Numbered from the stretch's first letter, positions 1 through 61,296 are shown. The stretch: 64,000 nt of DNA from Candidatus Omnitrophota bacterium (GCA_030650275.1 JAUSEK010000015.1:3834-67833); one strand, 5' to 3'. Notes: generated from the letters alone by a model not told the origin. Translations and numbers: made by a program.

Positions 1-3000
1 GGTCCATCGGCAGCCTCTACGCCAGCCGTGCCGGGAAGGGCGCGGGTGGGGTCTTTTTTATGTCCGTAGTAGCTATGTCTCTGGGCAAATCTATGCCAGT
101 TGCCCGGCAAGAACGACGCATCCAGTGTCTCCCGGTAATAGCTGGAAGACACATCCAGATCGATCCACGGATTCTGGATCAAATGCATATCGAGCTTCAC
201 CCGCTCATCCGCCGAGAGATCTCCTGCGCTAACCATCCGCCGCTGGATCTCACCGCGGATCGACAGGATCCCTTTAAGGACTGTCCTACTGCCTGCTCCA
301 TTCGCCACCAGCGGTATCTTGTTTATCTCCACAGCATCTCTGGCCTGAGCTGCGGCCGCTTCTTCATCTCCGCCCGCCTTCCTGGCATCTTTTCTCGCGC
401 TCTGCTCCGCTTTTGCCTTCTCACGCTCTATGTACTCATGCCGTCTCTGTAACTGCCCCGGGTCCAACTCCACATCCTGTAACCCCACAAACTCCCCATA
501 CAGCGCTCGCTGCATCCATCCATCTATGATCTGATGCATCCCATGGTTGATCGCATCTTTATACACATCCATTTTCCCTAAATGTTGCGCTGTATAATGC
601 CTTACTCTTTTTTCTTCTTCCGTACTTAACAAATACACTATTTCTACCCTGCGGCCGGTATTTAACTCCAGCAACCGGAGCATCTCTTCGAATCCTTCTA
701 TCTCACTATCCTCTTCACTGCCTAAATCTGTATACCTTAAGATCGGGAAGGTATCGCGGAACGTCTCTTGCGCCAATCTGTGTCTGTCCGCCGATGGGAC
801 CTGTGCGTCCGCGCTCACCTTCTTGTAGTCGATCTTCCCCTGGATCCTCATGACCACAAAATCCAGGCCCAACACATACGCTGACATCAATGCGATCAGC
901 GGATGGCCCCAGACCAGCGGATTCGCTGTGATCGGCAAATATCCTACCCGCAATGGCCTGCTTCTTAACTCATAGAGCCGCTCGTCTTGCACGTCTGTCC
1001 CATACTTCATCGTTCTAAACTTGACAAACGGCTCCGTCTTGCCTTCTCTGGCCTTTTGTGCCAAACCTTTTAGCGCCATTTCCATCGCTATATACAACCG
1101 TGGAACGAAGTGCTTGGATGTCCAATCTGTTCGCCCGGGGTTCTCTTCATAGAGACGCCTGATCTCTTTGACTTGTTCCCTTAGGCCATTCGTCCCTGAT
1201 TCAATCTCACCGCGGATATGTGCCCACACCGACTCCACCGCTCTCGCGGCCTCTTCCTGCCGATGTTCCAAATTCAAACTGATGTCCACACGCCCATTGC
1301 CAAACGGCAAGTCTGCCCATTCCCAAATACCATCAGTCACAAAGATAAACGTATATTGGAAGCCTTTGTTGACTTTAACTGTGGTCTCATAAATCAACTG
1401 TCCATTTCTCTCCCTTACAAACTTAAGCGGCCCACCCTCCTGCCTCCAATTCTGTTGATCCTGGTCTTTATTCGTATACAGCATCACTTCTCCCCGGAAG
1501 GTCTTCGCATACGTGACCGCCCTTAATACCACTTCATCCCCGGACAGGGCCTGTTTGTGCACTTCATCGATATATCCTCGCCTTAACCGACGGCCGATCT
1601 CCTGTTGCCGGGAAGTGTTTTCTCCCTCACTAAGGTTGAATTCAGGGTACGCGCCAATCTCATGACCGAGGCTCAAAACCTGTTCTTCGAGGGTGTTGTA
1701 ATCGGGATAGTTATTGCTGATGATGAGGTATTGCTGACCGTTGCGGGTGACAATGGTGGCTAAGAACCCTTTCACGGGACCGGCGCGGACCAGGCCGGCT
1801 ATGGCCATCTGTCTTAAACATTCGGCCATATGCGCGGCACCGATGGCTTCCAAAGCCCGGATCGCCAGTTTCACCGCAGCGCTGTTCTCATCCAAAACTG
1901 CGAAAGTATTGATGTCGTGCCGGCTCATTTCGAGGTCGACTTCCTCCTGGCTCAACAGCTCTGTGTCCGGTAAACGGCGGGTGGGGTCGCCGGTAGTATT
2001 GGCAGCATCAACGGCAACACTTTTTATGGTCCTGACGATATCTCTGTGACTAAACACCATCCTCATGGTGCTGTTGCCGCCCGCTGCATGGGCCAATTCG
2101 TCCACACTTGCCGCCTTGATCTCCGCCACCAAATTCCCGTCCACAACACCCATATCTGTCATCTTCCTGATGATACCGTCAGCATTCTCTTCCACCTGCA
2201 CGATGTAAACATCCACACTTTCACGCACAATACCCTGATGCTCATGCGAATACCGGTATATGTCATCTACAAATCCATCCATATGCCCTGGTATTCCTTC
2301 CTTAAGATGCGTCCCGGCCGAGATTGTGTTGTTTTCAAGCCACATATCGATCCCTAAGGACCTTGCCAGAATTCCGGGATCTGTCCCGCGCGCGCTGAAG
2401 AATGTGCGGCGCCCCTTGGCTGTTGCGGTGCCCTGGCCCCGAATATAATGGATCAGATGTCCTTCCTTGGACACGATCACGAAAACCACCCTCTGCTCCC
2501 AAGATCCTTGAGGAGCCAATGCTGCCGCGGATGGATCCGCGGATGCTGTGCTGGGCAAGGCAGGGGTGTGGGCGATGACCGATTGTGCAGCCGGCTTCTT
2601 GCTCCCCCACATCTCATGCTCAATCGCATATTTATACCAACGGGAAGGCAATAAGGCACTTGCTGCCGGGTGGCCCTCTTTTAACTTCTCCCGCAACAAG
2701 GTCGAGGAGATGTTTAAGTCCACATCCGGACCTTTGATCAAAAACATCGGGATGTCAGAGGTCGCATAAGCACTACCCATATCCTCCCGCGTAGCCTTGA
2801 CCGCGCTGTGGATCGTATCGATCCCTTTTAATGTCTTCGGTCTGCCGCTCCCATTGGTCAGCGGTATCCCTGCCTTAGCGTCATGCTCAGCTTTTTGAAC
2901 AGCTTCCTCTATTTGTACCGGTTCAAGACCAGATTTCTCTGCCTTTGCTTTGGCCTTTGCTTTTTCTGTAGCAATATACGCGCTTCTTTTTGCCAGCTGA

Positions 3001-6000
3001 TCAGCAGTCAACGTCACATCTGTTAATTCCACGAATTCCCCATACAAGCCTCTTTGGATCCAGCCCATGGAGATCCGATGCCGCTTGCTATCAAACCGAT
3101 GTAAATTCTTGCTCAACATCTCATAATGCAGGCGTATGTAATGCTCCACCCTTACTTCTGTCTCGGTGCTGAGCAAATACACAATATGCAGCCTGCGGTA
3201 TTTGTTCATCGCAAGAAGATTAAACATCTCTTCAAAGCCTTCCACCACTCTTTCTTTTTGCGTCCTAGGATCAATGGGCAGATCTTCACTGCCCAAACTC
3301 GTATAACTAAATACCGGCCGCAACCCTTCCCTGATATCCTCTTGCAACAGCCTATGCCGGTCTTTCTTGGGCGCCAAGTCCTCCGGGGCCATCGGCTTAT
3401 GAATCGCTCCCTGACCGCGTTTGACCAATCTATCCGCCATTACCTGATTACCGCTGGCCAACAACACCCACGGGTGACCATATACTTCAGGGTTAGCCGT
3501 AAGAGGAAAATACGCCACTGTCGCTTCTTTGAGCGGTACGAGCATAAAGAACATCTTAGTCAACCACTCAACCAGCCAGTTGCGCTTGATCAAACTCACC
3601 GGTGCAAACACGTTGATCTTCCCTTCCCTGGCCAAGCGCGCGCGTTGTTCTATGCCTTCCTGGAACACCCTAAAAAGATTCTCGGACACTATGCGCACTT
3701 CACTGCCTTCCGGCTCCTGCATGGCCGCCTCATAACCCGGCCTCATGTCTTCTTCTATGTACCGGGCTACGCGGTTGATCCTTTGCTCCTGCATGATCCG
3801 ATAGGATTCCCTCACAGCGCCGCGGATGCCTAACTCCGTCATCTGCTTGAATTTTAAAATGAATCGCACGCCGGCACCGACCCAGTCCGTGCGGGCTTCC
3901 AGCCGATGCTCGTATTGAGCAAACAGATGTTCTTCGTGCAGATTCTGATCGTGGGTGCCGTTGTTGCTTTCGTGAACAAGAGTGTAACTAAAGAAAGAAT
4001 TGTCGTTAATGGCGATCAGAATATACTCTAAACCATTGACCCGGACATGCGCCCCGTAGGCTGTTCCCATGGAACCCGCACGCACACGGCCGGCTTGCAT
4101 TAAGGCGCGCAACTTATCGGCTTTGTCTTTCTGTCCGGCAGCCTGATGATACAACAATACCTTTTGCGCGTCTTCCATCTGCTCATACACCGCCTTCCAA
4201 CCATGTCCGTGGATCGTGTTGCTTTCGATCAAGTGACGCGCTTCCGCTTCCACTTCACCAGCTGTATGGCCGGGACGGGGTTTGGCAGGATCGTTCGTTG
4301 TAGACGGCTGCCAGGTCCAATCGGATCTTTCACGCATTATTCTCTTAAAGTTTTCCGCAATGGTCTGTTCCTGCTCTGCTGTCAACGGCCTCTTTTCTCC
4401 AAAGGCAAACGGCAGGCCGCCCAGGGAATTTGCCCAACCCGCGGCCCCCATCAAGAGGTCCGACTCTTCCAAAAGGTGATAAACTCCACGACCAAACTGC
4501 GGGATGGTCGGCTGGATCGCCATCTCAAAGGTGCCGTCCTCGTGAATGCGCGCCACGATCAATGCCGTAAGACCGTGGCGATACATGTCCAAAATGTCCT
4601 GATGGGCCTTAAAGACGATCGCTTCCAGATCTTTTCCGAGATAAAAAAGCGCTCTGGCCGGCCAGCCGTTCAATTCGCCATAAACCATATCTTGACCGGC
4701 CGCTCCGGTCCGACGGAAGGTGACAAGGCCGGAATCAATGGCTCTCCAGAGCGGATTCCTCATCGGAGCTGAATGAGTATGCCAATGCCCTCCCTGGCTG
4801 GCCCCACCGCCCTGACCATTGGCCCAGGATTCGAACTCTTTACCGCGGGCGGCAGTAAACAACAAAAAGTCGCGCAGTCTATCAGCATCATCAAAAGTCA
4901 GGGCAACTCTGTCCTTGGCCAGCAGCATGATATGTCCCCGGGCCCACTCGCCGATCACCGTCGTTATGAAATATTCATGGCCTGTACCGCCCTTGGCAGG
5001 ACCGATGACCTGAAAATTTCTGCGCACATTAAAATCACACATGGGGCAATCTGTGTCCGGATGAGGAACATTGACCCTCACCCGCGACGCACCGGCATCT
5101 GCGGACTCCAGCGCTCTTATTTTCTGGGCTTCTGCATTTTTAGCCAGCGCTGCGGCTTCATGCGCCGGTGTGGCATAGCGGACCAGGATGCCGGTCGGTG
5201 TGCGGTGAGGATGGAAGACAAGGACCAGCGGAATGCCGTCTTCAGTCCTGATATCAACTTCATTGCTATGATCGAACCGATGGATCATTTCACCATCGGG
5301 GCCCATCTGCTCTGCGGCTGTTTCATAGCCCCTTTGGATCTCCGCGTCGGCAAAACCGACATTGTGTCTGGCGCGGGCCAGATCAATTGATGTCTGACGG
5401 CGATCACTTTCAACCGCGGGCGGCTGCCAATCCCAATCGGAAGCGTTGCGCATCATTTGTTCGAACCGGTCCGCCACGATCCGGCGTTGTGTTCCATCCA
5501 ATTCCTGGGCAGGACCAAAAGCATACGCCACACCACCCGGGATCCGGGAAGATCCGTTGCGGGTGGATATCAATTCCGGACCAAGCGGCTGCTCAAGCAG
5601 GTATGTTACACCGGACATGGCACCCAATTTTCTTGGACCGATCACCAGTTCATAAGTCCCATCATTCAATACACGGGCATTGATGGCGGGGGTGCTATTA
5701 TGATTATATAGATCTCGTAGATCTCTACTTGCAACCTGGACCAATTTTTGGACATTTTTACCTCTGTATATCCTCACTCTCGCCGGCCATCCCTCCATCT
5801 CACCGAACACCACATCGGATCCGAAAAATCCAGGATTCACAATAGTGACCTTACCGCTATCAATGGCCTTCCAAAGCGGAGAACGGAGCGCGGCGGAATG
5901 AAAATGCAGATGCTTGCCTTGTCTGGCGCCGCCCCCTGGGGCATTGGCCCAAGTTTCATGATCGCTGCCGCGTGCCGCGGTAAAGAGCAGCAAATCGCGC

Positions 6001-9000
6001 AATCTATCGGCATCAACGAACACCTGGGTGACTTTATTCTTGGCAACAGCCATGACCATCTCACGGCCATATTCACCGATAACTGTGGAAATAACGTACT
6101 CATACCCCACCGGGCCGACCGCGCGGTCCATGATCTGCCAAGGTTGTTTCGCATCAAAATTACACAACGAACAATCAGTGTCGGAATGGAGCATGTCAAC
6201 CGTTGTTGGTTCAGGCTGCCCATTACCTGCCAATGTCCGGCCCGGCAGGAAGGACAGCACGAACCGGACGCCATTTGTAGAAACAATTTCCACATCAGTG
6301 GAGGCATCATATGGATGGATGTTTGTTCCATCCGCGCCCTCTCTGGCCGCGGCGCGATCATAGCCATTGCGAATTCTCGCGGCAGCAAATCCTATATTAA
6401 CTTCAGCATCAGCCAAACTAATTGATGCCTGGTCTGCTTCCGCTTCCAGCCATCCCCTAGCTTTGTCTTCTCTGATAGTATTAGTTCCATCATCGTAGCC
6501 GAATGCGCTGCCGATCTCATGGGCGAGGCTCAAGACCTGTTCTTCGAGGGTGTTGTAGTTGGTATGGTTGTAGTCGGAATAATGGTCGCTGATGATGAGG
6601 TATTGCTGACCGTTGCGGGTCACAATAGTAGCTAAGAATCCTTTGACAGGGCCGGCACGGACCATGTGGTCTCTGGCCATCTGTCTTAAACGTTCGGCCA
6701 TATGCTGCGCGCCGATGGCTTCCAAGGCCCGGCTGGCTAATCTTACTGCGGCATTATTTTCATCCAGCACAGTGAAGGTATCGATGTTGTGCTGGGCCAT
6801 TTCAAGGTCAACTTCCTCTTGGGTCAACGGCGTTGTACCCGGCAAACCACGGGTCGGGTCATTGCGGGCCCCTCGACCATAAGAACCTTTCAATCCATAA
6901 GAAACATTTTTCAATAAACCAAAGGGTGTCAGAATAATACCTATAAGGACCAACGGCATTAAAGTCAGCAGCCCATGGATAAAGATCAGAAGCCGGTCAA
7001 TGCCTCCGGTCACCCGTTTCCCGTCCGTCACACGGACAGTCGTGCCGCTGACTAAAACCTTGCCCCAGTTTCTAAATTCATTAACCACGATCCCCAACCA
7101 CCCGAACAGGCCGACATCGTACGGCGTGGAACCGGGATTGTAGAATGTTGCCGAATAATACGTGGACAAGAAATACATAAACACCGGCCAGGACAACCAT
7201 TGCGAATCATTGTGATAAAGCCACAAGCCAAGGCCGCTAAATGCCATGCCCAGCAAAGCCGGTGACAGATGCGATCTCTCAAACGTTTCATACGTTGTCG
7301 GCTGCTGTTCATTAACAGCGTCATGAAGAACAAAATAGCGGTGTTCAAGGCCAAGCGTCCTGCCGGATCCCACGTATTTGGCATCGCCTCTCTGGGCCGT
7401 GTCCACGCCCTGCTTGTGGACGGAAACGAAGAACTGGAAGAATGGTGAGGTCATTAGAAGATATGTGACCCATTGATCAAATCCTGGGCTAAGCAGAATA
7501 ATGGCCAGCGGCGTGAAAGCCAGCAAAGAGATGGCCCCGTAATAGTATAGGCCTGATAACACAGCCAACTGGGCCAGGAACGGTACATAATTTCTCATTT
7601 GTATCCTGCCCAAATGAACGACCAGGATCGCAACAGCATAGGTTGCCAGAAGCGTCATCCACAGTGGAGCTGTCCCGAACATCATGACCGCCACCTTGCC
7701 AATAATAAACCACTGCACCGCCAGAGGGACCATTCTTCGTTTCTCGATCGTACCCAAAAGCCCGTGGTCAAAAATGAGCCGTACCAGCCCCGTCAACGTC
7801 GCGGCCTGGGAATAGATGATGCCGACAATGGCCAGCGATATTTCAAGAATGAACGCGGCAAAACCGCTTAAGCCCAGATAGACCAGGAATCCGGCATAAG
7901 AAAGGTTCGAGTTGTGCACGTGCGGCTCTTTGGTGTAGAAGCCGGTGCCGCCGAAGAAGTGCGTCAAATTGCGCAGGCGTCGGGTCACAAGATTGCCATA
8001 GACCGGTGCGTCCCTTAAATTTCTGGCCGGTTCAGAATGATATTGCTGCGCGCCGCCGCCGCCAAACTTGCTGTTCTTGGCCGCAACCCCCATAAGGCTG
8101 ACTTCACGGGCCTTGCCGGCCTTGGTATAGTAAATGAGCCTGACCTGCTTGCCTTTGGCCGTCCATTCATAGCCGGAGGGAATGTCTTCATTGACCACAT
8201 AGGCCTTGGTAATGCGGCCGATCATGTCCGTATAATTGGTGTCCCACCAATCCGGGTGACCATATTGATACCTCTGCTTACCAACCATGTCCTGGCTGGT
8301 TTGGACGACCAGGTTAAAGGTGCGGTCAGCATGCGCGTCAGCGGCGCCTTCGACAGAAATGTGCTCGGTAAAGATAAATTCAGGAAGCCCCACATTGATC
8401 ACATTGTTGTGTCTGAATTCCTGCGAGACATTAGGCGCCAGGAACGCGTCCTCGATGTAAACATCCTGGTTCTCATCCATGCCCTGCATATGCCGAACCC
8501 GGACAAACGGCTGCATGTTGATCTGGTTCGCCGGTTTGCCCTGGAAGGAAACCATCCTACCCGAATATTCCAAACGCATGATCACATGCGTCGGCTGACC
8601 CAAGGCATCGATGTCCCCTGCCCTGAAATAAACGCTGTTGCTGTTGGCGATCTTGTTGACCGTCTCCATATAAACGATTTCCAGATTGGAATAGATCTCA
8701 AACAGGCGAAGATAATGCGCCAGCAATTCCGGTCTGGCGGAAATGCCCTCACGCGGATTTCCAGCAATGCTTTCCCAGACCTGGAAGCCCAACAGCGGCT
8801 GGAATTGGTCTTGCACGCGCTGATGGACCATCGCCTGCCATGCCGCTTCGGAAGCATAGATGCTGCGGTCGTGGTAATTGATCTCAGCCAAAAACGTGAG
8901 GGCCTCTTCATAATGCATGATGCCGCGCACGGTGCGGCCGATGGTCTGGAACCGGGAAGCGGCCCACATCTGCACTTCAAATTTCACCCACGGATGTTGA

Positions 9001-12000
9001 ATGATCAACGGCTGTCCGCGTCTTAAATTCTCCATATTCTCCAAATCCCGCACGATCTGCGGATCCGTGACAAAACCATTGGCGTCCCTGCCGCCCGGAG
9101 CATCGTTATGGCCTCTCATGTTGATGCCTCTGGACAAACGCCGGATCACATTGCGCCACTGGTTCGGGGTCAGATCGATCATGTAAGTCAAATTCGTATG
9201 CCGGCCTTTGTCACGACGAATGTTGAGCTGGTCCAAAAGGAGATCTTCATTGGCATATTTGGGTATTCCCACACCGATGGAAATCTCATCAAAATCCGGC
9301 GCCTGTGGCATATCCATGGTGAGCTGTTCATAGATCGCATATATCCTGCGATAGACATCCGCATCCTTCGGGGCCTTGCTAAGATCGGGCCATTGAATGA
9401 TCACACCGTTGAGCCTGTCATTGCCAAGGCCTTCCCCTTTAATCTTGAATAAATAGGCTGCCAGCTGACCTTCGGACATTTCGTCTCTGATATTCATGCT
9501 TCTCATCTGGGCATTCCACCAGATGGCAAAGGCAATGTCTGTTTGCTGGGGCGTCAAGCGGCCGACGGATCCCGGCAAGACCTTGGTGACGAAATTCCTG
9601 CGCAAAGTGCCGCTGTGCATGGCCAGCCGCACCCTCCACCAAAATGGGAAGATGTGTTTACCGACATAGGCCAGTTTTCCGGCAGCGAGAATGGCCTGGG
9701 CCGCCTGGAACAAAGAATACAGAGACAGGACGTGATAGAAAATGAACGGCAGCCACAAGATCACCTTGGCCATGGTGCCGCCGACGAAATATCCGAGCAC
9801 GAACCAGCTGCCGAACACCAACGCCATCACCGGTAACGGGGCGATCAGGGACACAACGGCCCATGCCACGCCCTTCTTTTGGTCCCAACCAAAATTCTGG
9901 GCGATCTTAACTTTCAGCAGGATATAAACGAAAAAGAAAAGGATGCCATTCGAAGGCGACCGCAGATAACGCAGAAGTCCCGGGAAATCAATGTAGGCAA
10001 AATAGTCAACCGCATTGACCGCATCCAGGACGTAAGGAATGACATAATTGTTCCATTCATAATGAACAAAAGAAACAGCCGCCCAGACGAGGACCATGGT
10101 CAGGGTGTTCCAGAATTGTTTCGGGGCGGGGATGCCTTGGTAGGGCGGGACCGGTTTACCATAAAGTCCTGTACCGGCCGTTTTACTTCTGGGCGCTTGC
10201 CATATGTGTTCGATCACCTTGAAAAGAGCATAAAATCCGCCTAGGACCACGGCGATCTTGACAGCCGGACCCTGGCCGGCATTGTGCCAAATGGCGGCAA
10301 TGAACGTCAACGCCGCGTATTCATAAATCCCGATGTTGGCCAGGGTGGTCTGAATCCAGCCCTTCCAGCTCAAGGCCCCGCCCATCATTTCATTGTAGGT
10401 TTTATAAGGCGTCAGGTGGGCCGGAAAATTATTGCCTTGGGCTATGGTGGTGGCCGGGTCCCAATGAACGCCGCCGTTCCAATAATGAGCCAAATAAGCT
10501 TTGATATAATCAGGCGTCCTGAAAAGGCCTTCCATGTTGTCATGATTGACATATCCGGGCAGATAACCGCCTCTTTGCGGTTGGGACCGCATCCACACCG
10601 ACCATCTCCGGGCTTCGGCTTCGATCGCAGCGCGCACCTGGACCGACCGTCCTTCCGCAACCATGTGGCGAGCCAGGTGGAACAGGAACCATGTGACGTC
10701 GGAGGAAGCGCGCATTTCATCCGCGATCATCAGCACAGCGAAATAAATCCTGAGATCTTCACGGGTAAAGACCATGCCGCTCGCATCAATGCCCATGACC
10801 TCCCTGAGTAACCACAAATACCGTTCAAACAGATCCGGGGAAACCGTGTGGTTCGTCATCACGGCCGGAGCGCTCATCCGCTCACCAAGCGTCTTTCTGA
10901 CCTTCATTTCCATGCCGAAATGTTGGGACGGCGTCAAACCGAAGCTGGGCTCCAACGGCGCACCGGTTGAGATCTGCCGGAATGAAACCCTTCTGCCGGG
11001 ACGGGCCCCTCTGATGCGATTTATATGCTTGGCGAGCCAGCCGAGAAGGAAGGCGGCTGCGGCCGCTGCGACCAGCACTTTAACGAGCGTCAGCAGAACG
11101 GTGCCCTGCTCCTGTAATTCTTTTATCCAGCTGCTGCGCAGATCGGTGCGGACTTTGGGATTTTCTTTCGCCAATTCTCCGTTGATATACCTGTATTGCT
11201 GTTCATGCCAGACCCCCTGGATATTGACGCCCCCCGAAACAGGTTCTTTTTCATAGACCTGGACGGCGGTGGCCATGTCAAAATCGGTCCTGCCGAGATC
11301 GGCATAAGGAAGCGCCAGCGGATTGGGATCACCCTGGTCGGTATGGGCCGTAACCGCATATTCGGAGTGACGATAAATTTTGACCTTGTCCGTTTCTAAG
11401 ATCTGTCCAACATCGGCAGGCGCGGCCTGTTTGAGGACCAGGGCGGAAAAGACCGGGTTCTCAAATTCATTGATATATGTGATCTCATCCTTATAAGGAT
11501 CAATGAGGGCCCCCTGATTGAATACAGCCAGAGGCGTGATAATGTGCAAACCGGCTTCAAGAACTTTGCGCCCGGTGAAAAGATTATAGTAAACGGCCCG
11601 TTTGAACCGGTCGCCACGGACATCATAAGCCAGGAGTTTATTCCCACCGACCTCGGTAGTCCCCCGGAAGACCTCGCGCGTGGGGCCTTCCCCGCTACGG
11701 AACAGTTGAATGTTCTGCGGCATGATGTTGGACGAAGGCAGATCGGTCAAGGACACGATACTGCGCAGGTCCGCCGTAGCACGGTGCATCCACCAGGTAT
11801 TGATGGTCATGTTCCCGGCGGAGGTGATGACGGCCAATGAACGCCCGTTGCTGTCGAAACGACGCAGGACCTGAAACGAAGGCCTGGTCCACACCCCGGC
11901 CATGGTGCCGCCGAGGTTACGGGGCTGGTTCTGGTCACGGATCATGATCAGTGAGGTGTCCGGAGTTATGCCTTCCTGCTCAAGGTCCTTCCATAGGTCC

Positions 12001-15000
12001 CTGCCGGTCAAACCATTGATGGCATTGACCGCCGCCGGAGTGAATATGTCTTTGGCTGCCCGGCTCAAGCGGATGTCACGGCGTTCCACGCCGTTCAAGA
12101 AATCTTTCTTCTCCACGATCTCGTAATTCTTGTTTAAGGTGATGGACTGCGTGACCTCACCGGTGATCGCGTCAAAGTCAAGCGCCACCACGGTCTGGTC
12201 AATATTCCCCATGGCATCGTAATGCACGGTCACGAACCGGCGTTCCTGCACGTCGAATTTCTTCTTGAAATCCCTGAATTCTTTGCCTTCCACGCTGACG
12301 ACCGGGATGCGCTCCATGACCGTCAATGCATTGATCCCGAAACGGGCAAAGGCCCGAACGATCTCGGGGAATTTCATCAAACGCTCATACCCCATCCCGT
12401 CCCTGGCGGCCTCCACATCCACCTCGCCGAGGATCTTGCGGACAGGCATCCACGTCGTATCCCGGCGCTCGGAAACCCGGCGTTCTTGAAGCACATTGTT
12501 TTGGTCATACACACGGTCATCATTTTCAAACCAGTCTATCTGCACCGGGCCTGCCCAGACCTGATCGGCATTGTTCAGCGTCCCGGGCAAACGCATGATC
12601 CCCTTGGTCTCCTGCAGTTTCAAGCCGTCCGGCGTAAAGACCATTCTCACGACTAAGATGAATTCCCCAGGTCTTGCGCCATTAAGCCGAGCATCATCAA
12701 CAATGATCCGGCCGTTGTTTTCACCGATACGGACCACGGAGATCGCGTCCTTGAATTGGACATTACCGACGGTCAGATCCAGTCCTTGGTGGTCTTCATG
12801 CAAATTGTCTAAGTAAATGCGTCTGGGCGTCGTGGCCGCGCGCGCGAAATCACGAACAACCGGCCATTGGGCGGCCGGGACACGAACGCGGATCTCCACG
12901 CCTGGAATATTCAAATAAACGATCGACTGGGTCATGGGTTCGATGCGGCGTATGGGCTTGTCGGCGGTTGCGTCCGGATAAATGTCAATGGTCACCGTGT
13001 CCTGTTGGAAATTCTGGCTGGCAATGACACGATTGCCCTCTGTTACGGTCGGGTCCAAACGCCGCGCCTCCGCCAAGGTCAAGGGCCGATTGTGGCCAAT
13101 GTGAATGGAAAAATCAGCGTAAGGGTATTGACCATCCGCTCTCCTGGTCCCATATAGCGGATAAATGTCCGAGCTTCCGTCGGCATATACCACTTCCCGG
13201 CGGGACGCTTCCTTGTTGGCCGCAAAGTAATAACGCTGCCTGACTTTATAATCCGGGCCAAACACCGTGAAAGTCGTGTACTTGGTGCGCAGGACATCAT
13301 ACGCTGTACTGGCAATCCGGGTGGCCTGCGGCGGGGCAATGACCGGTGCCACGGGAGCGATCGACTGTGCCGTCGTGGGTGCAGAAGATTGTGCCGGCGC
13401 GGTCTGGACTGCCGTAATGCCTAAGTCCCTGATCGCCTGTTGTAAGGCCGCACCTGTAGGTTTGGCCGCACCGCTAAACAACTCACGCAAGGTCCAGAAC
13501 GCCTCCCTGGGCGTGCCGTTGGCATCAATGATCCCCCACCATTCTTCATTGGCAACACCATCGTCCGGTAATCCGGGTAAAGGCAGACCGGTCGTATCCT
13601 GAATATTTAAATTGGCATTCTCATTGGCCTTCCACAATTCATCCCGGCCGCCGCTCATATAGGTGACGCCTAAGAAAATGCTGGGATCAGCCCTGGCCAT
13701 CAGCGTCCGTTGGATGTCGCGCAAGGCACCGGCTTGCATGTTCTGGTCTTCACGCCGGGTCCGTGCGTTATACGAATCCGTCCCAGCTTCAGAGATGTAC
13801 ATCTTCAAATTCTTGTTGATACCCGGAGTATTCAGAATGCCGCGCCACTGATCAATGACGCCGGAATCATCCCTGCCGCGGTACATATTGACGCCCCAGA
13901 CATCCACCGACGGTACCTGACGGACAACGCCAATGGTCGGGATCTCGCCATGGGCCGTGGAAACCCGAATGGCCGGGGCGATCCCCTTGGACTCCCGTGC
14001 CGCCTGCTCCAACATCCTGTACCAGTTGTTGACACTGCCGTTAAACCATTCCGGATGATAGTTGTACTCATTGCCGAATTCAAACATGGCGATCGCCGGA
14101 TGATTCCTGTAGGTGCGGATATAGTCCTTGTAGCGTCCGCCGGAAATATCATATTTATCAGCCGCCGAGATAAAGCGATCATCGAACGACGGGAACCCGA
14201 TGATGGCCTTGATACCGTTCTGGGCCAGGGCATCCAGGAACGCTTTGGAGGTGATCGGATAATAGGTGCGGATGACGGTCATGCCCGCGTACTTCATCCA
14301 TTTGACGTCGTTGATATGACGGTCCCAATTGATGCCGGTCCTGCGGGTTTCCCCTTTGGGGATCGGGCTATAGGTGATACCGCGCAAAGGCATAGCCGCG
14401 TTCACCGTAGGAGCCGGCGGCGTCTGCGCATAAGCAGATAACGGACCAAATATGTCACCAAGAACGCGCCCGATCTGACTTAAAAGATTGAACGGTTGTG
14501 ACTTCGCAGGCGCGGTAATAGGCGCAGGAACAACGACATGCTCTGGATTCCCGACAGAAGCATTCGGGAATGACAAACTGGGCGACATGGCCGGTTGAAC
14601 GGCGGCAGCCGGTCGGGCGGCAGGAGCAGCCGGGGTAGCACCGGAGACCTTGTGCCCGCCCAATAACATGGGATCATATCCAGACACTGCAAAGCTATAA
14701 TAAGTGCCGCTGACTAAGGCCGCATAGGCCCTGGAGGTGATCGTGTCAAATCCGGTACTAACGACGGCAGTATTACCGGCGGCGTCCACCGCATAAGAAG
14801 CTGTCAGTGCACCGCCGTTGGTCTTAAAGAACCCGGCCAGCGACCGTACCAGGCCTTCATACTTGGCCTTATACTCCTGGGATTTGGCTGTGTTGCCGAC
14901 ACTGGAAAATTCCTGAGACACGGCAAGATAACGCAAGGCCAGTTGCGACGACCATTCGATGGAAATGACCTGTTTCCTGTTGCGGTAATCGATGCCAAGC

Positions 15001-18000
15001 AGGGTCGTGCCATTATAAACACCGGCGCGCTGTTCCACCACTTGCAGCATTTGCTCGATCTCAGTCAAACGCTGGGCACGGGTAGCGCCGAAGCGGGCGT
15101 CGTTAAGCATTCTCTCCAGCGGTGACCAGCTGCTGGTATCGCTGGCCCACAGTGATTCCGCGTCTTTCACCCAAGCGCTACCATTCCACACCGCACCTCT
15201 GGAGAAGGTGTGTGTCGCCGGATTATACATGCCCATCACCCAGCCATAGGCCCTATTGCCCGCCTGCAAATATTGATTGTCCCTGGTCGCCTGATACAAC
15301 ATATCGAAGAAGGCCACGGCGCTTTCATTGTTCTCGGTGGACTTGATGTTCCAGTAGAAGTTCCGGTCGCTATTGGGACTGAACTGTCCCCTGGGTCCCA
15401 TGCGGATACCGCCGTCGGTGTCCTGCATGCTGATCAGGAACGCCGCCCGTTCTCTGGCAAAACGCAGGGCCGCCGCGCTGCGTGTACTGTTATAGTTCTG
15501 CACACCGCCCATCCCGATCCACGCATTGGGGCCGGCATGCGCCGAGAAGTCCCAATTTGTATACCACTGACCAACAAAATTGCCGGTACGGATATTATTT
15601 AACACCGCCCCGTTGGGCTGATAATCTCCCGGACGCGGCATGGTCTGCGGATTGCTGGCCCCGTTGGCCGCTGTCAGGTTGCGGGCATAGGCATTGAGTA
15701 TCCTGTTTTGTCCGGCGATCAACAGCAAAGAGGCATCATAGGTATAAATGTTGTTGCTGGTATAAAGGGCCGGATCACCGTAGAAACTGTTGGGCATGCC
15801 TGTTGCCGCGTTGACCCTGCTGGTAAAGAACTGAAGGAATTGACGGCCTGACGCCGCATCAGGTAATGCCGCTGGCAGTTGTGCGGCGGCGACAGGGGTG
15901 GCTTGTCCGCCCGCAGGTGTCGGTGTGGTCACAACCGCAGCAGCAGCCGGTATGGCTGGAACGGCCATGGCACCTGGTATCGGCATGGGGGTCCGCCGCA
16001 CAGGAGCCACGGTACGTGGAGCCGTGGGAAGCATCGGGATCGGACCGACACCGCCAAGATCACGGAAATTAAAGAACTCGAAAGCTCCGGTAACATTGTT
16101 ATAGGCCATGGGATGTGTCTGCCAATACTGGTCCATTCTGTCCCAGATCGCCGGGCTGGATAATTCCTCCGCATCGATCATGGATGCATTCAGCGGACCG
16201 TCCACCAAAAGGACATTAGCTAACACCGGCTTGTATCCCCTGGCTGCCCAAGCCGCATTGTTACGGACCTCGGCGTATTCGATCTCTTCGCTAGGATCGG
16301 GCTGGCCGTTCCCATTGGCATCCCTGTAATACGGATAGCCCTTTGATCTTTCCCGCAAATGGACCTGGGCGAACGGACCGCGCTTGGCCGCCTCCGATAG
16401 ACGCAAGGCGCGCTCGAATTGGCCTTTGATGACAAAGCCGATCACCACTTTATCAGGATCATTCTGTTCACCGGGGTTGGCCATCAATGTGAACATGATC
16501 GGTGTATCATCAGAAGCGGCCCTATATGCGGCCGCGCTGAGATTGTTGACACGAAAATATGTCTCAATGAACGCGTTGAGATCGTTGAGGCCTTCGATCA
16601 GCCCCTGACGGGTCGAGTCAATAATAACGGGATATGGACTGGCCAGGGCAGGCCCGAACAGGGCCGGCGTGTCTTTGGACAAGGTGAGCATTGTATTATT
16701 GTCGCCCAGATCGATCTCCTGTGTCCCTTTAAGGAACTTATGGCGGCCGTCGGCGCCGACGTAAATGGCCGGGGTAGCGGTCTTCAGGTCCGCGGGTTCA
16801 ATGCGGCGGGTCTGGTTAATGATCGCCCCGGCTCCAACCGCAGCTTTCCGGAAAGTTTCTGTGCTGATGCCCGCCGGGACTTTCCCATCGAAGAAAATAC
16901 CCGCGGCCCGGAAATTGTTCTGCAGATACCGATATTTCTCAAATTCTACCACGTGTTTGGCGTATTCGCCGATGGCCCCTGACGGCGTCATCTCAATGAT
17001 GATAGGATAGTCGCTCTTGTAGGCCGGGGCCAATTTTTCCGTGTCTTCGCCCACCACGATCATGATCTTGCCCTCGCCCAACGGAATGCGCACCGAGCCG
17101 TCCGGAGGGTTGAACCAGAATCGGGTGCCGTCGAAGGTGATGTGGTTCCTTTGTACCTTCTGCGGGTCTTTTTTGTAGAGCGCTTCCAGCACCCAGATCA
17201 ACTGGTCGTCTTTGCGGACGCCGCGGCTAAAGACCACCTCATCAAGCCCCGCCGGCTCCCGTCCATCCGTATGTCTGCCCAAAGCATAGGAACGTTCTGT
17301 GAGGGCCAACATGTCGCGGATAAACTCGAAGGAGTAGATGACGATCTCGCCATCCAGGGTCACGTCCGCCAGCGGCCGCAACAGTGGGCCTTTGACGAAG
17401 ATGTGTATTGTGCCGTTGCCTTTGAGGATACTGTCAAAAGGCACGTTGGTGGATAAGAGAAAAGGCAGTAGACGGGCCACGCCCTGGCGCTGGAGAACAC
17501 TCTTGTTCGTGTCAGGGCCCTTGCCCAGCAGACGCATAATGTCCAGATCAACCGAAGCGCGCGGCTGGCCGCTGGTGCTGCTGCCGGCGGAGACGGTCAC
17601 ATCCTTAAATTGGGTGTTCACGTTCACGGTGGCGGCCAGCGGCCCCTGTCTGCCGCGGTCAAGGCCGATGGAAAGGCTCATCCAGTTACGGTCAATGATC
17701 TTGGTGCTGACGCTGTAAGCATAAAATCCTTCATCATATTCCCCGTGGAGATTCACGCGGTACACGGTGGCGTTCAATTCGGTCTTGTTCTTGTTCAGGG
17801 CCTTGTCAAAATTGAATGTCACCAGCCCGCCCTTGGCTTTAATTCCGGCACCGACGGAAGGATATATTTCGGAACGCTTGCCGAAGATCGTGTCATTCTC
17901 TGCCCGGCGGGTCACGCCGGCACGAACCATCAAATTCTTATTGATGTCATGCACAAAGCCCATGTTCTGGAAATTGTATCTGTCATTCACATCCAGAGTG

Positions 18001-21000
18001 ATCTTTTCGGCGGCCACCGGCTGCTGGGACAGGGTGTCGTAGAAGGTCAGCGTATCGTCCTTGCGGTCGCTGCCCTGGGCCATGCCGAGTTCCACAATGA
18101 ACCTGTTGCTACCCGACAGCTGATGTTCATAAATGCCGCTCAAGCCGTAGATCTGACCGTTGTTGCCGCTGTTGAACTTCATGACGCCGGCGACGGTCAA
18201 CTCCACCTTCTGTCCCTGGTAGCCCAGCACGTTCATGATCAGGCCGTATTTCTGGGTCACGGCCTGGACGCTTCCGTCGGGCTGAAGAAGATATTGATTG
18301 GCGTTCACGCCGCCGCCGATAAAGGTATTCAGCACCCGTTCGCCGATGGCGCTGTTGACCCCGCCCAGCCAATACTGGCTTTGCCATTCCTTGTTGACCG
18401 TGGTCAATTTGCCGAAATGGGCGCTCAAGGCATTGTTGACATCGCCGATGGAGAAAGCCGCGTTGCTGAAGTCCTTGCTGATCTCCAGAGTGGATGCCTC
18501 CAGGGCCGGCAGGGTTGTCTTGTGGCCATCCGTCGGTAACGAAGCGCCGGAAGGCAGGTAAACGGCGTCACCCATGACCATGACCCCGGCGCCCGGCGCG
18601 GGATGGTTGAGGAAAAATTCATCCATGGCCTGTCCGACGGCCCCGCGGTCCTGGGCGCTGATCCTGCCCTGGTCCGCCAACGCCGTGATCTTGGCTTTAA
18701 CAGCCCCGGCCTTCGCGGTAAATTCACCGGCCTTGCCCTGTAAGGTCTTGACCGTTTCCTGCGCCTGCGCCAGCAAACTGTTGTATGCCTTGCGCGCGTC
18801 GTTGAGCGCAATATTGTCCCTGATCCTGCTTTGCTGGGCGCGGCCCATGCGCAATGAGTTGTCTATCAAGCCCTGCAGCGGATCGCCCGCGCCCCTGCGG
18901 CGCAGGACATTGTCCAGGGCCTGGGTATAATTTTCTTTCTCAAATTGGGTGACTTGCGCCAAATTGGCCGTGACCTCCGCGGTGTATAATTCTCCCCTGG
19001 CCTTGAGATCGTTGATGCGATTGAGGATATTCAGGCGTTCGGTATAAATAGCCAGTTCCGTATTGATATTGCTCGTCATCAAAGCGGTGATCTCTTCAAA
19101 CGCCGCCCGCGGGGTTTTCTTGCCGAAACGAATGTCCACGCCCAGCGTGCCTTGCAGGTCTATCTCTCTGCGCCAGGGTCCGTTCAAATAATCACGATCG
19201 GTCATCAAGTTAGCGATCAAGCTGGTAACATCGCTTTGACCCTGCGCACTTAAAATACTGGAAGACAGCGCACGGTTAAGGGAATCAATGTCTGTTTTGA
19301 TCTGTTCCAGCCGTTGCGTCACATACCGGTCCGCTTCCTGCAGATTGTGCTCCTGCTCGGGGTTGGTTGAGAAAAATGGCAGTTTGTCGAAATTAGGATT
19401 GTCCAGTGAAGGGATGGACTGCTGCAAAATGGTCCAGATCGCATCGGCATCACCCTTTGCGCCTTTTGCACCATTTACAATTTCTTCTATTTCTGTTCTA
19501 TTTAAATCTCTACTTGGGTTTAAGCGAACCTCTGTTGAAGAAACTTCAATTAAAATACCTCTTTGTATTAATTCGTTTAAGATCTTGGCTCCATTTAAGC
19601 CAACCCCAGAAATCGTTAATTTTTTAATATTCATAGGCAGGGTTATGGCGTCGGCAATGGCTTCTTTAAGTTTCTGCTGGTTGGCTCGCGTCTGGGCGAC
19701 TGTTTTGGCCAGGGCGTCCACGTCCGTTTGCTGGAACAGCGCGCTGTTGGCCCCAAAATACCGGTTGATGTCATCCAAAAGAATATTGGGGTTCTGGGCC
19801 AGCCGGGCTTTGTACTGTTCAATGAGGGCAGGATACTCTTCCGGTTTGGTGCCCGGTTTGGCCTGGGCGCGCACGACATAATTGATCGCCTTCAGGGTCG
19901 GGAAGAAACCGTCTTCGATATTGAGGATCTCGTCCTGGACGGACTTCAAAATGCCGAGCAAGGCGGTATTGAGCTCGGCAAAGCCCTTGCGGCCGCTGGC
20001 TGCTTCGGCGCGGGCCAGGGCGTCGGCGGCTTTGCCAAGGTTCACCCGCACCGCGATCAATCTGTTCCTCACATCCTTGCCGGCGCTTTCCACATCTTTA
20101 AGTTCACCAAGGGCCTTTAAAACATCATTCTTAACTTCCTGCGGGGCCCTAACAAATACAGGGCCGTTGATGAAATCAATGAGGTCCTGCATGGTGGCGG
20201 CATGGACTATGGCCTCGATGGCCTGGGACACCGCCGGCGAAAGCGGAACGTCCACCTCCTGCTTGACCGTCACAGGGATCTTGTTGGTGTAGCTGGTGAT
20301 GCCGTCCCGGCCCAAAATGGCCACGCGCGCGTTGTTTCTCGTCAACTCATCTTCAATGCTCCCCAGGGCCGCGCCGTACTCAACAATGCCATTGGCGCCG
20401 TTTTGATATGTCACCACACTCACCAGACCGGGCTCCACTGCGACCTTGTGCGTGATCGTCTGCCGGTCGCCCGTCGTATAATCAAAGGTGATGTTCAGGT
20501 CTTTTTGGGCATCGCGGGTATATACGGAACGGGCGTTCACTTCGGCAAGTGCCTTGTCATAGATCATGCGCACGATGCCGCCTTCGGTGATGGTCCTCAT
20601 ATAAGGAATGCTGTCGCTCGCCGGGGCCGGGATGAAACGGCCGATCTGGTCTTTGCTGATGCGCACCACGGGGAATCCGGTGGACAGAACGCTGTCATTG
20701 TATTCCTTTTGGGTCAAACGGAATTTCTCGCTCACCGGCATGCGCAGGACGATGTTTTCATCGGCCTTGACCGGTGTTGTTGCCGGTTGTGTGGTGAAAT
20801 CAGCCGTATAACCGCTGAATTCATAAACCTGCTCTCCTGTTGTGTCATCTTTCTTCAAGGTATAAACCGCCATGGTGCCCAGGTCATTGCGCGGATGGTT
20901 CCTGAATTTCAACCAAAAATCCTGTTGGGCCGCGCGCGGAGTATAACTGACAACGCCCAGGGCGATCTGTTTGTCCCCGTCGCTGAAACGCAAAACATGT

Positions 21001-24000
21001 CCCGGATTGTTCGGGTCTTCCAGGGCATATTGGGCGTCGGTCGGCACGGGCTTGAGGGCGCCCAAGACCGGTTCCCAAACCGTATACGGAAACTTGTCGT
21101 CCTTGTAGACATGTAGGATGCGCCCGGTCAGAACATCCTTGGTAATGGCATTCACGCGCGGATCCAGCCAGTAGGCCACTTCCTGGTCCATATTTTCCAG
21201 CATGGCCTTGGTCACACGGCGGTTGAGCGTGCCGGGTTCGGTCCATAATTTCTGTTCGCGCAGGAATTTTTCGTAAGCACCCTGCATTTTATATGTGCCG
21301 TCCGCCTGCTTCTGTTCATAAAAGAGCTGGGAAGCGAACATCTGATACGTGCCCTTGTCACCGTGGCTGGCCAGGACTTCCCTCCAATTGATGCGATAGC
21401 CGAACATGAATTGCTGGGCAGGGATGGCCCCGGGATCATTGGCAGGGACGAATTCACTGCGGTTATTGACGAAATCCCCCACCCTGCCGCGCAGGATGAT
21501 ATACCAAACATACGGATCGGACTCGGCCATGGCCCTGGCATTAAAATTGCGTTCAATGTCACCAAAATTATAACCGGCCCTGCCATCCCAAACATTGACA
21601 CGGTTCTTGTCACCCAAATATTGGCCGATGCCCGGGATCTTTGAACCAAGGTTCAACCCGTCAACGATTGCTTTGACCCAGATGGAGTGGAATGATTTGG
21701 CGTTTCTGGCCGGGTCAAAACCGCTGTCATCATCTTTCGGAATAGGGTTGCCCCCATGATTAACGCGGCCTATGCCGAGCAGGGAATACCACCGGAAGGA
21801 CCTGTCATAACGGGCCCCGCCGATATCGGCCTTGATATAATGATCCACGATGGACGCATACGTCTCGTTGATGGCATTGATCAGACCGATGTAGCCAAAG
21901 GTCTTGCCGACCGTGCTCAACGGCTTGCCCGCCGCGTTCACGCCATTTAAGAGATTGCGCAAGCCGGCCGTCTGCTGGGCTATTTCAAAAGGCAAACTGG
22001 CGCTGTTGGGCACTTGCAGATACACGGACGTGATACCCCACTCCTTGGTATTGTAAATAGCATTCACCGGTTGCCAGTTAAAACCAACGCCCAATAGGAG
22101 CCCGACCTGTTTCTTCCGGGAGAATTTGGCCTCGTCCATGGCCTTGACCAGGGCCTTTAAGAGATTTTCGGGCGTACTGCCGTAGGCCGCCAGATCGCTT
22201 TGCAAAACGCCGTAGTTCGCATCGCGGACCAGCCCTTCGATCACCGGGGCCTTGACCGCATCTTCCCGGGCCTTTGCATCCGCGAAGCGCTTATCAATAT
22301 CAAATTGTTTCGCCACATTATCCGCGTCTATTTTTTCTATTTCCTGGGCCTTGAGGGCGACCGCTTCTTCCGCATTCTTGACATCCAAGGCCATCCTCAC
22401 AACATTTTCCTGTTGCTGCACGTCCTTGGGGTCCTGGTTCTGCGCGAATTGGGCCAACGCAGCGCGTCTGGCGTCCAGATCGTCCTGCATGGTCTTTAAT
22501 TCCTGCCGCTTCTGTTCCAGGTCTGCGTCGGCCTTGACGGCAACACCTCCTGCTCCCTGAACGGCTGTCGTTGCCGCGGCCTTCAAGGCCTGCGTCACAT
22601 GGGCTTGGACGTTATACCCACCGTTGGGCCGGACGAATTGCTGGGGATCTTCGGAAGCGACGGTGATGATGGCATTCTTGAACGGAACATTGCCGCCATA
22701 CACGGCCTTGCGCACATTGTTCATCATGCGCTCATGCAGGGCCTCGTAGTCGGCGCGCATGACATAGGTCTTGTCCACGAACAACACCGTCGGGTTGGGT
22801 ACGGCCAGTTCCAGGTTCTTTAAGTCATCGGCTTTGATGCCCTTGGGCAGGTCCTGGAGGCCTAACCCGGTCTTGAAGCCCTCGGGCGCGGCCACGAAAT
22901 ATTTATCTCCAGCGCGGCCAATGACCATCAAACGGCCTTCCTCATTATTGGCGCCTAAAGTAAAGTCGGGTGTTTCAAGAGGAACAATGGCTGTGACGCT
23001 GATGGCAGGCACGCCCGAGTACGGTAACAGGGAATCATTGATGCGCTGTTCAACTGTCTTCGCTTGGGCAACGGGTTGCTGGACGGTCTGGTCTTTGGGT
23101 TGGACCGAAGGTTCGATCTTGGGTGTCGGGGCCTGGACCGCAGGTTTGGTTTGCGTCGGAGCGGCGGGCTCGTCTTGTTTAGGTCCGATCCTTGGCTGGA
23201 TCTGGGCTTGGGCCGGGGGTTGAACAAAAGACGCTTCCCGCGCGCGCGTGAACGCATCAATAACATCCCCGCGCAACTCCTGCGGGATCAAATGCGGCGC
23301 TGTAAATAACAGCAAGGTTGCCTGATTAATATCGTTGGGGCTTAAAGCCGCGATGGCCTTGCGTTCATCCTGCAATGCCTGGGCATGCCAGACATCGTAG
23401 CTGACCCAGTTGGGGACTCTGGACGGATTGGCATGGGCCGGCGTCGCGGAAACAATGCCGGTCAGCAAAACAATGGCGGCCACAGCCCCGATACCGATGC
23501 GATGGGCTAATGGACTGCTCTTTCTGAAGCCGCTGTTGATCTTATGGAGGATATATGCCGCGGCGGCAACGGCCAAGAAAAGCCCCGCCATCCACACTAT
23601 CGCTTCCGGTGAGACATGGAAGACAGGACGCACGAATGGCGTCTCGGTTTTGGCCCTGTTTGTGGGATCTTCGGGGCCGACTGCCGGACGCTCGATATTT
23701 GCGGTACTATTTGAACTACTTTCACCTGCGGCATCCCGCTTCAGCGGGACCCTGTCAGAACTGGTGCTGCTGCTACCTTCTTTTTCGCTGGGCAGAGCTT
23801 GCGCTAAGCCAGATACTGGATTTTCACCAGAACTTCTAACGTTTACTGCAACTTCTCTAGTACCAACAACTTCGCTTACTTTGTCCTCATTTATCGCATT
23901 TTCATCTGTCCGAACCCCCGAGGAGGGGTCGACAGAGAACGTACGACCGCCGTCGCCGAATTTTGATTGAAGTTCTTCTATAGAAGGCCCTGTTAACCGG

Positions 24001-61295: not shown

Positions 61296-61296
61296 T

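Follow-up and report, generated by a model that had tools for sequence, protein, structure and literature searches.

Divergent HIT and NadD-like modules in a giant open reading frame of an Omnitrophota bacterium

Introduction

Most of the sequence of giant Omnitrophota genes is "dark", and the locus studied here raises the question of which protein families are hidden in such a stretch. We analysed a window of 64,000 nucleotides from a Candidatus Omnitrophota bacterium (GCA_030650275.1 JAUSEK010000015.1:3834-67833). A sequence-only reading of it had proposed tandem GalT-like HIT units, two NadD-like nucleotidyltransferase domains and a CBM48-like module which, together with GT48 and GH-A domains, would form a polysaccharide theme spread across one polypeptide.

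Giant proteins of this phylum have been described as having C39 N-termini, Tad/T2SS flanks and commonly GT5 domains, and a "multi-enzyme metabolic cluster" class that includes HIT and sugar-metabolism domains was defined (West-Roberts et al. 2023, bioRxiv 10.1101/2023.11.21.568195; 2026 preprint 10.64898/2026.06.07.730766). The terms glucan synthase/GT48 and nucleotidyltransferase are absent from the texts of both preprints.

Results and Discussion

A giant open reading frame and its modules

All motifs quoted in the sequence-only reading lie in the same minus-strand frame of a single uninterrupted ORF. Because this frame runs without a stop for 16,130 codons, from the ATG at 48392 to nt 3 at the window edge, "one polypeptide" is a correct description. 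With its length of more than 10,000 codons, a C39-like peptidase at the N-terminus, numerous membrane helices and flanking Tad/T2SS genes within the window, the ORF shares the features of the published giant Omnitrophota proteins, from which it differs in carrying module families that have no Pfam model. The only Pfam families recognized over the complete giant ORF are Glucan_synthase, TPR and, close to the N-terminus, Peptidase_C39. The proposed GT48 domain was thus recovered just upstream of the modules considered here (E 3e-44; aa 13008-13494, the final membrane helix at aa 13802-13820 according to hydropathy), but the GH-A domain was not, as Pfam finds no glycoside-hydrolase family anywhere in the ORF.

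Behind the membrane helices of the GT48-like module follow, in this order, X1, HIT unit 1, HIT unit 2, X2, NadD-like 1, a segment of about 180 residues, X3, a small beta module, NadD-like 2 and X4 (Table 1). Scanning these modules (nt 3-6857) with Pfam and NCBIfam gave no model above threshold, and this includes the families named for the earlier domain calls (GalP_UDP_transf, HIT, CTP_transf_like, AMPK1_CBM/CBM_48). The segment of about 180 residues has no match in Pfam, in NCBIfam, among PDB sequences (phmmer) or in the homolog searches.

Table 1. Features of the giant ORF and coordinates in the window.
Feature	Coordinates	Strand	Remarks
Giant ORF	3..48392	-	at least 16,130 codons, ATG at 48392, open at the left window edge
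GT48-like glucan synthase module and C-terminal membrane helices	6933..9371	-	Pfam PF02364, E 3.2e-44; hydropathy scans
Module X1, predicted zincin-like spacer	6468..6857	-	DPTRGLPG start, HEIGS; 70% identical to X3
HIT unit 1 (aa 13975-14345)	5358..6470	-	H-x4-CSLC and HLHFH; 40% identical to HIT unit 2
HIT unit 2 (aa 14346-14699)	4296..5357	-	same family as HIT unit 1; H-x4-CPMC and HWHTH
Module X2, divergent spacer copy	3888..4295	-	NDPAKPRPG ... LVHESNNGTH; about 25 cluster representatives match
NadD-like nucleotidyltransferase 1 (aa 14895-15290)	2523..3710	-	ANPEVYGH ... ISSTLLR; paralog of NadD-like 2
Soluble segment, about 180 residues	1986..2522	-	no family or homolog match
Module X3, predicted zincin-like spacer	1593..1985	-	DPTRRLPD ... 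HEIGA
Small predicted all-beta module (aa 15606-15712)	1257..1577	-	"CBM48-like" module of the sequence-only reading
NadD-like nucleotidyltransferase 2 (aa 15755-16113)	54..1130	-	ANPLVWGH ... VSSSYYR; PDB profile match NadD 8aih
Fourth spacer module X4, start only	3..53	-	cut by the window edge; KDPTRALPGT..., fits the DPxRPLPG start of the X family

Relatives in other genomes

Relatives were found only by an exhaustive representative search, which yielded 98 independent database sequences, while a word-indexed homolog search returned nothing for a HIT unit, for the segment of about 180 residues together with X3 and the beta module, or for a two-sequence beta-module alignment. Conservation was counted over 23 HIT and 26 NadD-like sequences. 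The relatives are mainly found in giant ORFs of Omnitrophota genomes, which also carry Glyco_transf_5, DUF4922, PRK, HD and NTP_transf_2 domains. Using a six-sequence subset alignment as query, 23 loci with the NadD-like module were located, mostly in Omnitrophota MAGs and some in sequences labelled Planctomycetales or other taxa. One related giant ORF (L004) combines a bona fide DUF4922 domain and a glycogen synthase with the NadD-like module; its DUF4922 segment shows no similarity to the HIT units of the window detectable by tblastn.

The HIT units

The two HIT units are tandem paralogs (E 1e-86). Their motifs DTDCSLCNF (6156-6182, placed near 6,178 before), DTDCPMCDF (5031-5057) and GGHWHTHS (4770-4793) are present on the minus strand, and so is HLHFHS (5895-5912), which had been left unverified. 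Also the spacing of about 90 residues between CxxC and HxHxH holds, the first Cys (C130 in unit-2 numbering) preceding the first His (H217) by 87 residues. In the alignment of 23 sequences H125, C130 and H217 are invariant, C133 and H219 are conserved in 22, and unit 1 has all of the conserved family residues. Position 221 is Gln in ten sequences, His in eight and another residue in five, so that HxHxQ, known from the GalT branch, is the commonest form among the relatives; both window copies read HxHxH.

When the profile of the 23 relatives was compared with the PDB, only HIT proteins were matched (best 6d6j, E 1.2e-4), with the CxxC pair and the His triad aligned. Structure prediction gave a high-confidence fold, a single chain with two HIT-like lobes which matches solved members of the GalT branch. 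Sequence profiles and the structure model thus support the view that the HIT units, each a complete two-lobed enzyme with an Apa2 fold, belong to the GalT branch within the HIT superfamily. The "GalT-like HIT" assignment therefore stands as far as the HIT family is concerned. GalT proper was rejected: neither GalP_UDP_transf nor GalP_UDP_tr_C matches the window or any of the 23 relatives, and according to the PDB profile matches the closest solved structure is an Ap4A phosphorylase and not GalT. GalT itself (1gup, 6k5z) and the GalT-like ADP-glucose phosphorylase At5g18200 (1z84) are clearly further away than Apa2.

Yeast Apa2 (PDB 4i5t; Pfam ATP_transf/Ap4A_phos_N) is nevertheless a distant comparison, with only about 11% identity and no Pfam match on the window copies. 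The window units differ from it by HxHxH in place of HxHxQ, by the conserved H-x(4-10)-CxxC knuckle, by a beta/alpha segment that adds about 80 residues at the N-terminus, and by being tandem duplicated modules within a giant ORF.

Pfam matches among the relatives are weak: DUF4922 is found in 8 of 23 (best E 6e-5), Ap4A_phos_N in three and HIT in two, the latter below the cut-off with E values of about 0.01-0.03. On the window copies themselves no HIT or DcpS_C-type model scores above gathering and DUF4922 is not reached either. Stand-alone HIT relatives adjoin NUDIX genes.

The HIT units could be Ap4A-type phosphorylases or ATP adenylyltransferases that serve nucleotide housekeeping and have no tie to sugar nucleotides or to the glucan synthase. 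The best structural match, being an Ap4A phosphorylase and not a sugar-nucleotide enzyme, speaks for this. However, to our knowledge no GDPGP1/VTC2-type structure exists in the PDB, which would bias a fold comparison in favour of Apa2. Among the Pfam families, that of GDPGP1/VTC2 (GDP-D-glucose/GDP-L-galactose phosphorylase) has matches in the largest number of relatives, the HIT units share their polypeptide with a glucan synthase, and related giants pair DUF4922 with glycogen synthase domains. We therefore regard a housekeeping role as a possibility to be taken seriously but not as the likely one. DUF4922 is a domain of the GDP-D-glucose phosphorylase GDPGP1 (PMC7041677).

The NadD-like units

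The two NadD-like units are also paralogs of each other (37% identity, E 1e-56), and the motifs by which they had been noticed, YGHPW (3468-3482) and VWGHP (900-914), are present on the minus strand. Their proposed relationship to NadD is supported: the six top PDB matches of the family profile are all NadD (best 8aih, E 1e-5), and an hhalign comparison gave a colinear alignment of 179 columns that spans a whole NadD sequence (residues 3-188, E 2.4e-5). The CTP_transf_like model matches 5 of the 26 relatives weakly (best E 2e-4) and neither window copy above its gathering score.

The residues G75, H76, S329 and R333, which form the GH and SxxxxR motifs, are invariant in all 26 sequences. SxxxxR appears in the window as ISSTLLR and VSSSYYR, of which the second Ser and the Arg are the invariant positions, and it aligns with the corresponding motif of NadD and NMNAT (ISSTxxR). 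GH and a C-terminal "VP..V..y...gYYG" align with NadD as well. These similarities support the assignment to a divergent NadD-like family of Rossmann-type nucleotidyltransferases, at the level of sequence. The "HxGH" label fits only in part, since GH is there but the first His is Val in both copies. At this position of (H/T)xGH the 26 sequences have Asn (16), Val (4, including both window copies), Thr (3), Trp (2) and His (1). Further differences from NadD are PxxANP in place of GGxFDP, so that the GGxFxP glycine loop is replaced in the window copies, and a helical extension that lengthens the N-terminus by about 60 residues. The window copies have an insertion of about 100 residues which is absent or shorter in the relatives and is coiled-coil-like in NadD-like 1. 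Given the Val and the altered glycine loop, the activity of the two copies may be altered or lost.

Spacer modules and the beta module

Between the enzymes lie modules of about 130 residues which had been overlooked before. X1 and X3 are close copies, one X2-type sequence aligns with the family, and the X family comprises about 25 cluster representatives. A structure model of X3 suggests a zincin-like fold, while the X-family profile gave no meaningful match to PDB sequences and the modules do not have the second His of HExxH. We regard them as putative zincin-like spacers which may be processing sites.

For the small beta module the quoted peptides were found, YTFIFVTDGIWEW at 1317-1355 and GNGRVDISLN at 1272-1301, about 80 nt away from the position of about 1,400 given before. 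Whether it is a true CBM48 or AMPK-beta-type glycogen-binding module is doubtful. There is a short "YxF..(D)GxW" resemblance, DSSP describes the AF2 model as all-beta, and the only homolog (L008, 34% identity, E 7e-13) adjoins a Glyco_transf_5 starch-synthase domain (E 9e-54) on its N-terminal side, which is the typical place of starch-binding modules. Against this, neither AMPK1_CBM nor CBM_48 of Pfam matched, the PDB gave no sequence match to the single sequence or to the two-sequence profile, and hhalign with the AMPK beta-1 glycogen-binding domain reached a probability of 0.7% over only 17 columns. The model, folded effectively without an alignment, has pLDDT values of 30-75, which makes a fold comparison meaningless. 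The CBM48 call is thus the exception among earlier domain calls that were largely right.

Proposed function and alternative readings

The explanation we favour, with some confidence, is a giant multi-enzyme protein of the Omnitrophota type that is anchored in the membrane. Its soluble part, with the HIT and NadD-like enzymes, would be encoded by nt 3-6857, behind the final membrane helix of the GT48-like glucan synthase module. The soluble tail would be cytoplasmic; hydropathy counts are ambiguous as to its membrane side. The HIT units would work via a covalent nucleotidyl-histidine formed at H219, the central His of HxHxH. The conserved CxxC pair, probably together with H125 and H217, provides candidate ligands which could hold a structural zinc, as found in GalT. 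The units might split or transfer nucleoside-diphosphate-X using phosphate or a sugar-1-phosphate. As a committed guess X would be hexose-1-phosphate, which would make them NDP-glucose phosphorylases of the GDPGP1 or ADP-glucose-phosphorylase kind, with Ap4A as the main alternative. The NadD-like units would move NMP from an NTP onto a phosphorylated acceptor, and the X modules may serve as processing sites. From its context the proposed polysaccharide theme is plausible, and the modules may have a functional tie to glucan synthesis.

One might object that the modules are degenerate pseudo-enzymes, which catalyse nothing and, within a giant surface or scaffold protein, would bind ligands or act as structural spacers. 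The VxGH in place of HxGH and the altered glycine-rich loop in both NadD-like copies fit this, as do the incomplete HExxH of the X modules and the position of the window sequences under every curated family threshold. However, in either family conservation is highest at the residues required for catalysis (H217 and H219 of the HIT units, GH and SxxxxR of the NadD-like units), and both HIT copies retain the full triad despite their divergence to 40% identity. We consider a loss of catalysis throughout unlikely.

A more far-reaching variant appears still less probable to us: in a self-processing polyprotein, the zincin-like X modules with their DPxRPLPG start would serve to cut or organise a "metabolon" tethered to the membrane, which couples a eukaryote-type GT48 beta-1,3-glucan synthase to the HIT pair and to NadD-like adenylyltransferases, enzymes of undescribed families specific to Omnitrophota giants. 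If this were true, the Apa2/GDPGP1-like HIT pair would be nucleotide-sugar proofreading or recycling enzymes.

That the ORF or its motifs arose by chance or assembly error is practically negligible and was rejected: nothing was found to favour it beyond the fact that no protein or contig collection searched contains the exact sequence, and against it stand a frame that stays open for 16,130 codons, internal paralogs with E values of 1e-56 to 1e-86, the 98 database relatives and the high-confidence fold.

Returning to the proposed multi-enzyme protein, its HIT and NadD-like modules belong to known superfamilies, in which they form new divergent families, and they occur in a known class of giant ORF; no new kind of biological system is revealed. 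What is gained is a partial assignment of about 2,300 residues unrecognised by curated models, which resolve to a HIT family (Apa2/GalT branch, with a CxxC knuckle), a divergent NadD-like family and a recurrent putative zincin-like spacer; seed alignments for new family models are provided. Because the HIT and NadD-like units are of expressible size (350-400 residues) and have predicted catalytic residues, the idea that such giants are chains of nucleotide and sugar-nucleotide enzymes on a polysaccharide synthase becomes testable at the bench.

The giant ORF and its genomic setting

The minus-strand frame of the giant ORF is free of stop codons from nt 3, at the window edge, to nt 48401, with its first ATG at 48392 preceded by an AT-rich, promoter-like stretch. 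It has a length of at least 16,130 codons and extends past the window edge. On the whole product Pfam recognises only a Peptidase_C39-like segment near the N-terminus, TPR and Glucan_synthase (GT48). A single membrane helix (aa 46-64) precedes the C39-like segment, an arrangement also reported in Omnitrophota giant proteins. The GT48 domain in this bacterial ORF is of eukaryote type and, as in Fks1, a block of membrane helices comes after it. According to hydropathy the last strongly hydrophobic helix lies at aa 13802-13820 (nt ~6989), and everything downstream of it is soluble.

Upstream of the giant gene lie genes for two T2SSF (TadB/C-like) proteins and for an ATPase of the ParA/CpaE-CpaF type. 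Two large ORFs of this cluster (1,032 and 485 aa) are without a family match, and a further one is possibly a transposase. An AbiEi/AbiEii toxin-antitoxin pair separates the pilus genes from the giant gene, and a similar pair is found beside a stand-alone HIT relative at another locus (L026). Together with the N-terminal C39 domain, the pilus genes match published descriptions of giant Omnitrophota genes. In these, GT5 glycogen-synthase domains are frequent, and one class, the "multi-enzyme metabolic cluster", contains HIT and NUDIX domains (West-Roberts et al. 2023, bioRxiv 10.1101/2023.11.21.568195; 2026 preprint 10.64898/2026.06.07.730766).

All eight peptides quoted in the sequence-only reading were found, each on the minus strand and in one shared frame. 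Translation and self-comparison give the module order X1, HIT1, HIT2, X2, NadD-like 1, a segment of ~180 aa, X3, the small beta module, NadD-like 2 and X4. HIT1 and HIT2 share 40% identity (E 1e-86), the two NadD-like units 37% (E 1e-56), and X1 and X3 70%. The ~180-residue segment matched nothing in Pfam or NCBIfam, and no relatives of it were found among PDB sequences or among the 98 database matches described below.

Features of the giant ORF and its upstream region (window coordinates)
Feature	Position (nt)	Strand	Basis or remark
X4, start	3-53	minus	cut by window edge
NadD-like 2	54-1130	minus	self-comparison, translation
Insertion in NadD-like 2	200-480	minus	coiled-coil-like
Small beta module	1257-1577	minus	translation
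X3	1593-1985	minus	self-comparison, translation
Soluble segment, ~180 aa	1986-2522	minus	between NadD-like 1 and X3
NadD-like 1	2523-3710	minus	self-comparison, translation
Insertion in NadD-like 1	2700-3000	minus	coiled-coil-like
X2	3888-4295	minus	self-comparison, translation
HIT2	4296-5357	minus	self-comparison, translation
HIT1	5358-6470	minus	self-comparison, translation
X1	6468-6857	minus	self-comparison, translation
GT48 1,3-beta-glucan synthase domain	7911-9371	minus	giant aa 13008-13494; PF02364, E 3e-44
Peptidase_C39-like segment	within 48392 to ~47500	minus	giant aa ~210-287; Pfam
AbiEi/AbiEii pair	48852-50287	plus	toxin-antitoxin pair
Tad-like pilus/secretion cluster	50308-63978	minus	two T2SSF, ParA/CpaE-like domain fused to T2SSE ATPase
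HTH_32-containing ORF	59982-61295		within the Tad-like cluster

Relatives in the databases

A word-indexed protein search returned no relatives, and comparing nt 1746-5345 exhaustively with 1.84 billion cluster representatives gave 98 matches. They fall cleanly into three families, HIT-like (~21 proteins), X (~25) and NadD-like (~37), and many are pieces of very large proteins of up to 7,852 aa. A genome scan with some members of the NadD-like family led to 23 loci, mostly in Omnitrophota MAGs, some MAGs being labelled as Planctomycetales or other taxa. One related giant ORF (L004, 3-6002) combines a NadD-like module with a bona fide DUF4922, Methyltransf_28, shikimate dehydrogenase and Glyco_transf_5 plus Glycos_transf_1, and another giant fragment carries two HIT units with PRK, HD_3, NTP_transf_2 and ARMT1-like domains. 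Stand-alone relatives of the HIT units (309-355 residues) are encoded by ordinary genes adjoining NUDIX hydrolase genes (L026, 6001-8761; L029, 3390-5696). The one in L026 also adjoins a Sugar-bind regulator and a luciferase-like oxidoreductase.

HIT units

In an alignment of 23 HIT-family sequences (numbered after unit 2), H125, C130 and H217 are conserved in all, and C133 and H219 in 22. The zinc-knuckle and histidine motifs of the sequence-only reading are exactly these conserved columns. At the third position of the triad Q is found in 10 and H in 8 of the 23 sequences, so that the HxHxQ of the GalT branch is the commonest form of the family; both window copies have HxHxH. The catalytic residues are conserved. 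A sequence profile search of the PDB returned almost only HIT proteins (best 6d6j, E 1.2e-4), with the CxxC of the family aligned on the HIT "CxFC" and triad on triad.

In the comparison with solved structures, yeast Ap4A phosphorylase Apa2 (4i5t) scored 20.7 over 259 aligned residues, followed by DUF4931 (4qvu, 10.7), GalT-like At5g18200 (1z84, 10.1), GalT (6k5z, 9.9), CDP-diacylglycerol pyrophosphatase (2pof, 9.8), GalT (1gup, 8.1) and single-lobe HINT-type proteins (about 7 or less). Foldseek ranked them alike (Apa2, E 4.7e-8; GalT, E 2e-4). Each unit is therefore a complete two-lobed HIT enzyme of the GalT branch, its nearest solved relative being Apa2 in place of the GalT of the sequence-only reading. 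In this branch the second His of the motif becomes covalently nucleotidylated during catalysis, and the structural zinc of E. coli GalT is bound by the first His of the motif, the CxxC and another His. H125, C130, C133 and H217 are candidate zinc ligands that fit this pattern.

Searched singly against Pfam, members of the alignment touched DUF4922 (8 of 23), Ap4A_phos_N (3) and HIT (2), all below threshold, and the window copies gave no match. DUF4922 is the domain of the GDP-D-glucose phosphorylase GDPGP1/mcp-1, which in animals corresponds to plant VTC2 (PMC7041677). We tentatively regard the units as NDP-hexose phosphorylases or transferases, in line with the DUF4922 matches. The main alternative, somewhat less probable, is that they are Ap4A-type enzymes, as the similarity to Apa2 might suggest, and what probability remains falls to some other function or to inactivity.

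NadD-like units

The two NadD-like domains of the sequence-only reading were borne out at the superfamily level. With the NadD-like profile the six best PDB matches are all nicotinate-nucleotide adenylyltransferases (top 8aih, E 1e-5), the alignment covering the N-terminal nucleotide-binding motif and then the ISSTxxR region; with a two-sequence profile human NMNAT1 was already on top (E 0.03). Using hhalign, 179 columns align colinearly with residues 3-188 of B. subtilis NadD (E 2.4e-5). Pfam CTP_transf_like is touched by five of 26 members (best E 2e-4). Sequence profiles thus assign the units to this family, and their catalytic residues are conserved. P71, G75, H76, D90, G98, R116, P129, E171, R175, R208, D324, S329 and R333 are invariant in all 26 aligned sequences. 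In comparison with NadD, the first His of HxGH is replaced by Asn in most relatives and by Val in both window copies, the glycine-rich GGxFxP has become P-x-x-A-N-P, and an N-terminal helical extension is added.

Both window copies contain, between the core and ISSTxxR, a charged Lys/Glu/Ala-rich, coiled-coil-like insertion of ~100 residues, which is shared by two relatives (P0052, P0068) and lacking in most others. Part of it weakly matches an N-terminal stretch of human NMNAT1.

Small beta module and X modules

At the superfamily level four of the five proposed modules were right. The exception is the small beta module, whose assignment as CBM48-like found no support in Pfam or in the PDB (phmmer and profile search); hhalign against the glycogen-binding domain of AMPK beta-1 gave 0.7% probability and a 17-column "YKF..DGxW" patch only. 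The AF2 model of X3 and this module predicts beta strands in the latter, though at a low pLDDT of 30-75. Its sole homolog, besides which further scans found none, is located in L008 (2-2100; 34% identity, E 7e-13), where it occupies aa 111-215 and is directly followed by Glyco_transf_5 (aa 217-447, E 9e-54) and Glycos_transf_1, a glycogen/starch synthase. Since starch-binding modules are typically found just before such a synthase domain, a glucan-binding role seems reasonable.

The zincin-like X modules start with DPxR(P)LPG and have a near-invariant HEIGA, and X3 is modelled by AF2 with a pLDDT of 92-98. They may be proteases that actively process the product, relics that have lost activity, or no more than spacers. 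Proteolytic processing of giant products by other peptidase domains has been proposed (West-Roberts et al.).

Implications

Because all three enzyme types require nucleotides, the HIT and NadD-like units would act on the cytoplasmic side, and they might process nucleoside-diphosphate-X compounds close to the glucan synthase. The HIT and NadD-like modules represent new divergent families of known superfamilies, within a known class of giant genes.
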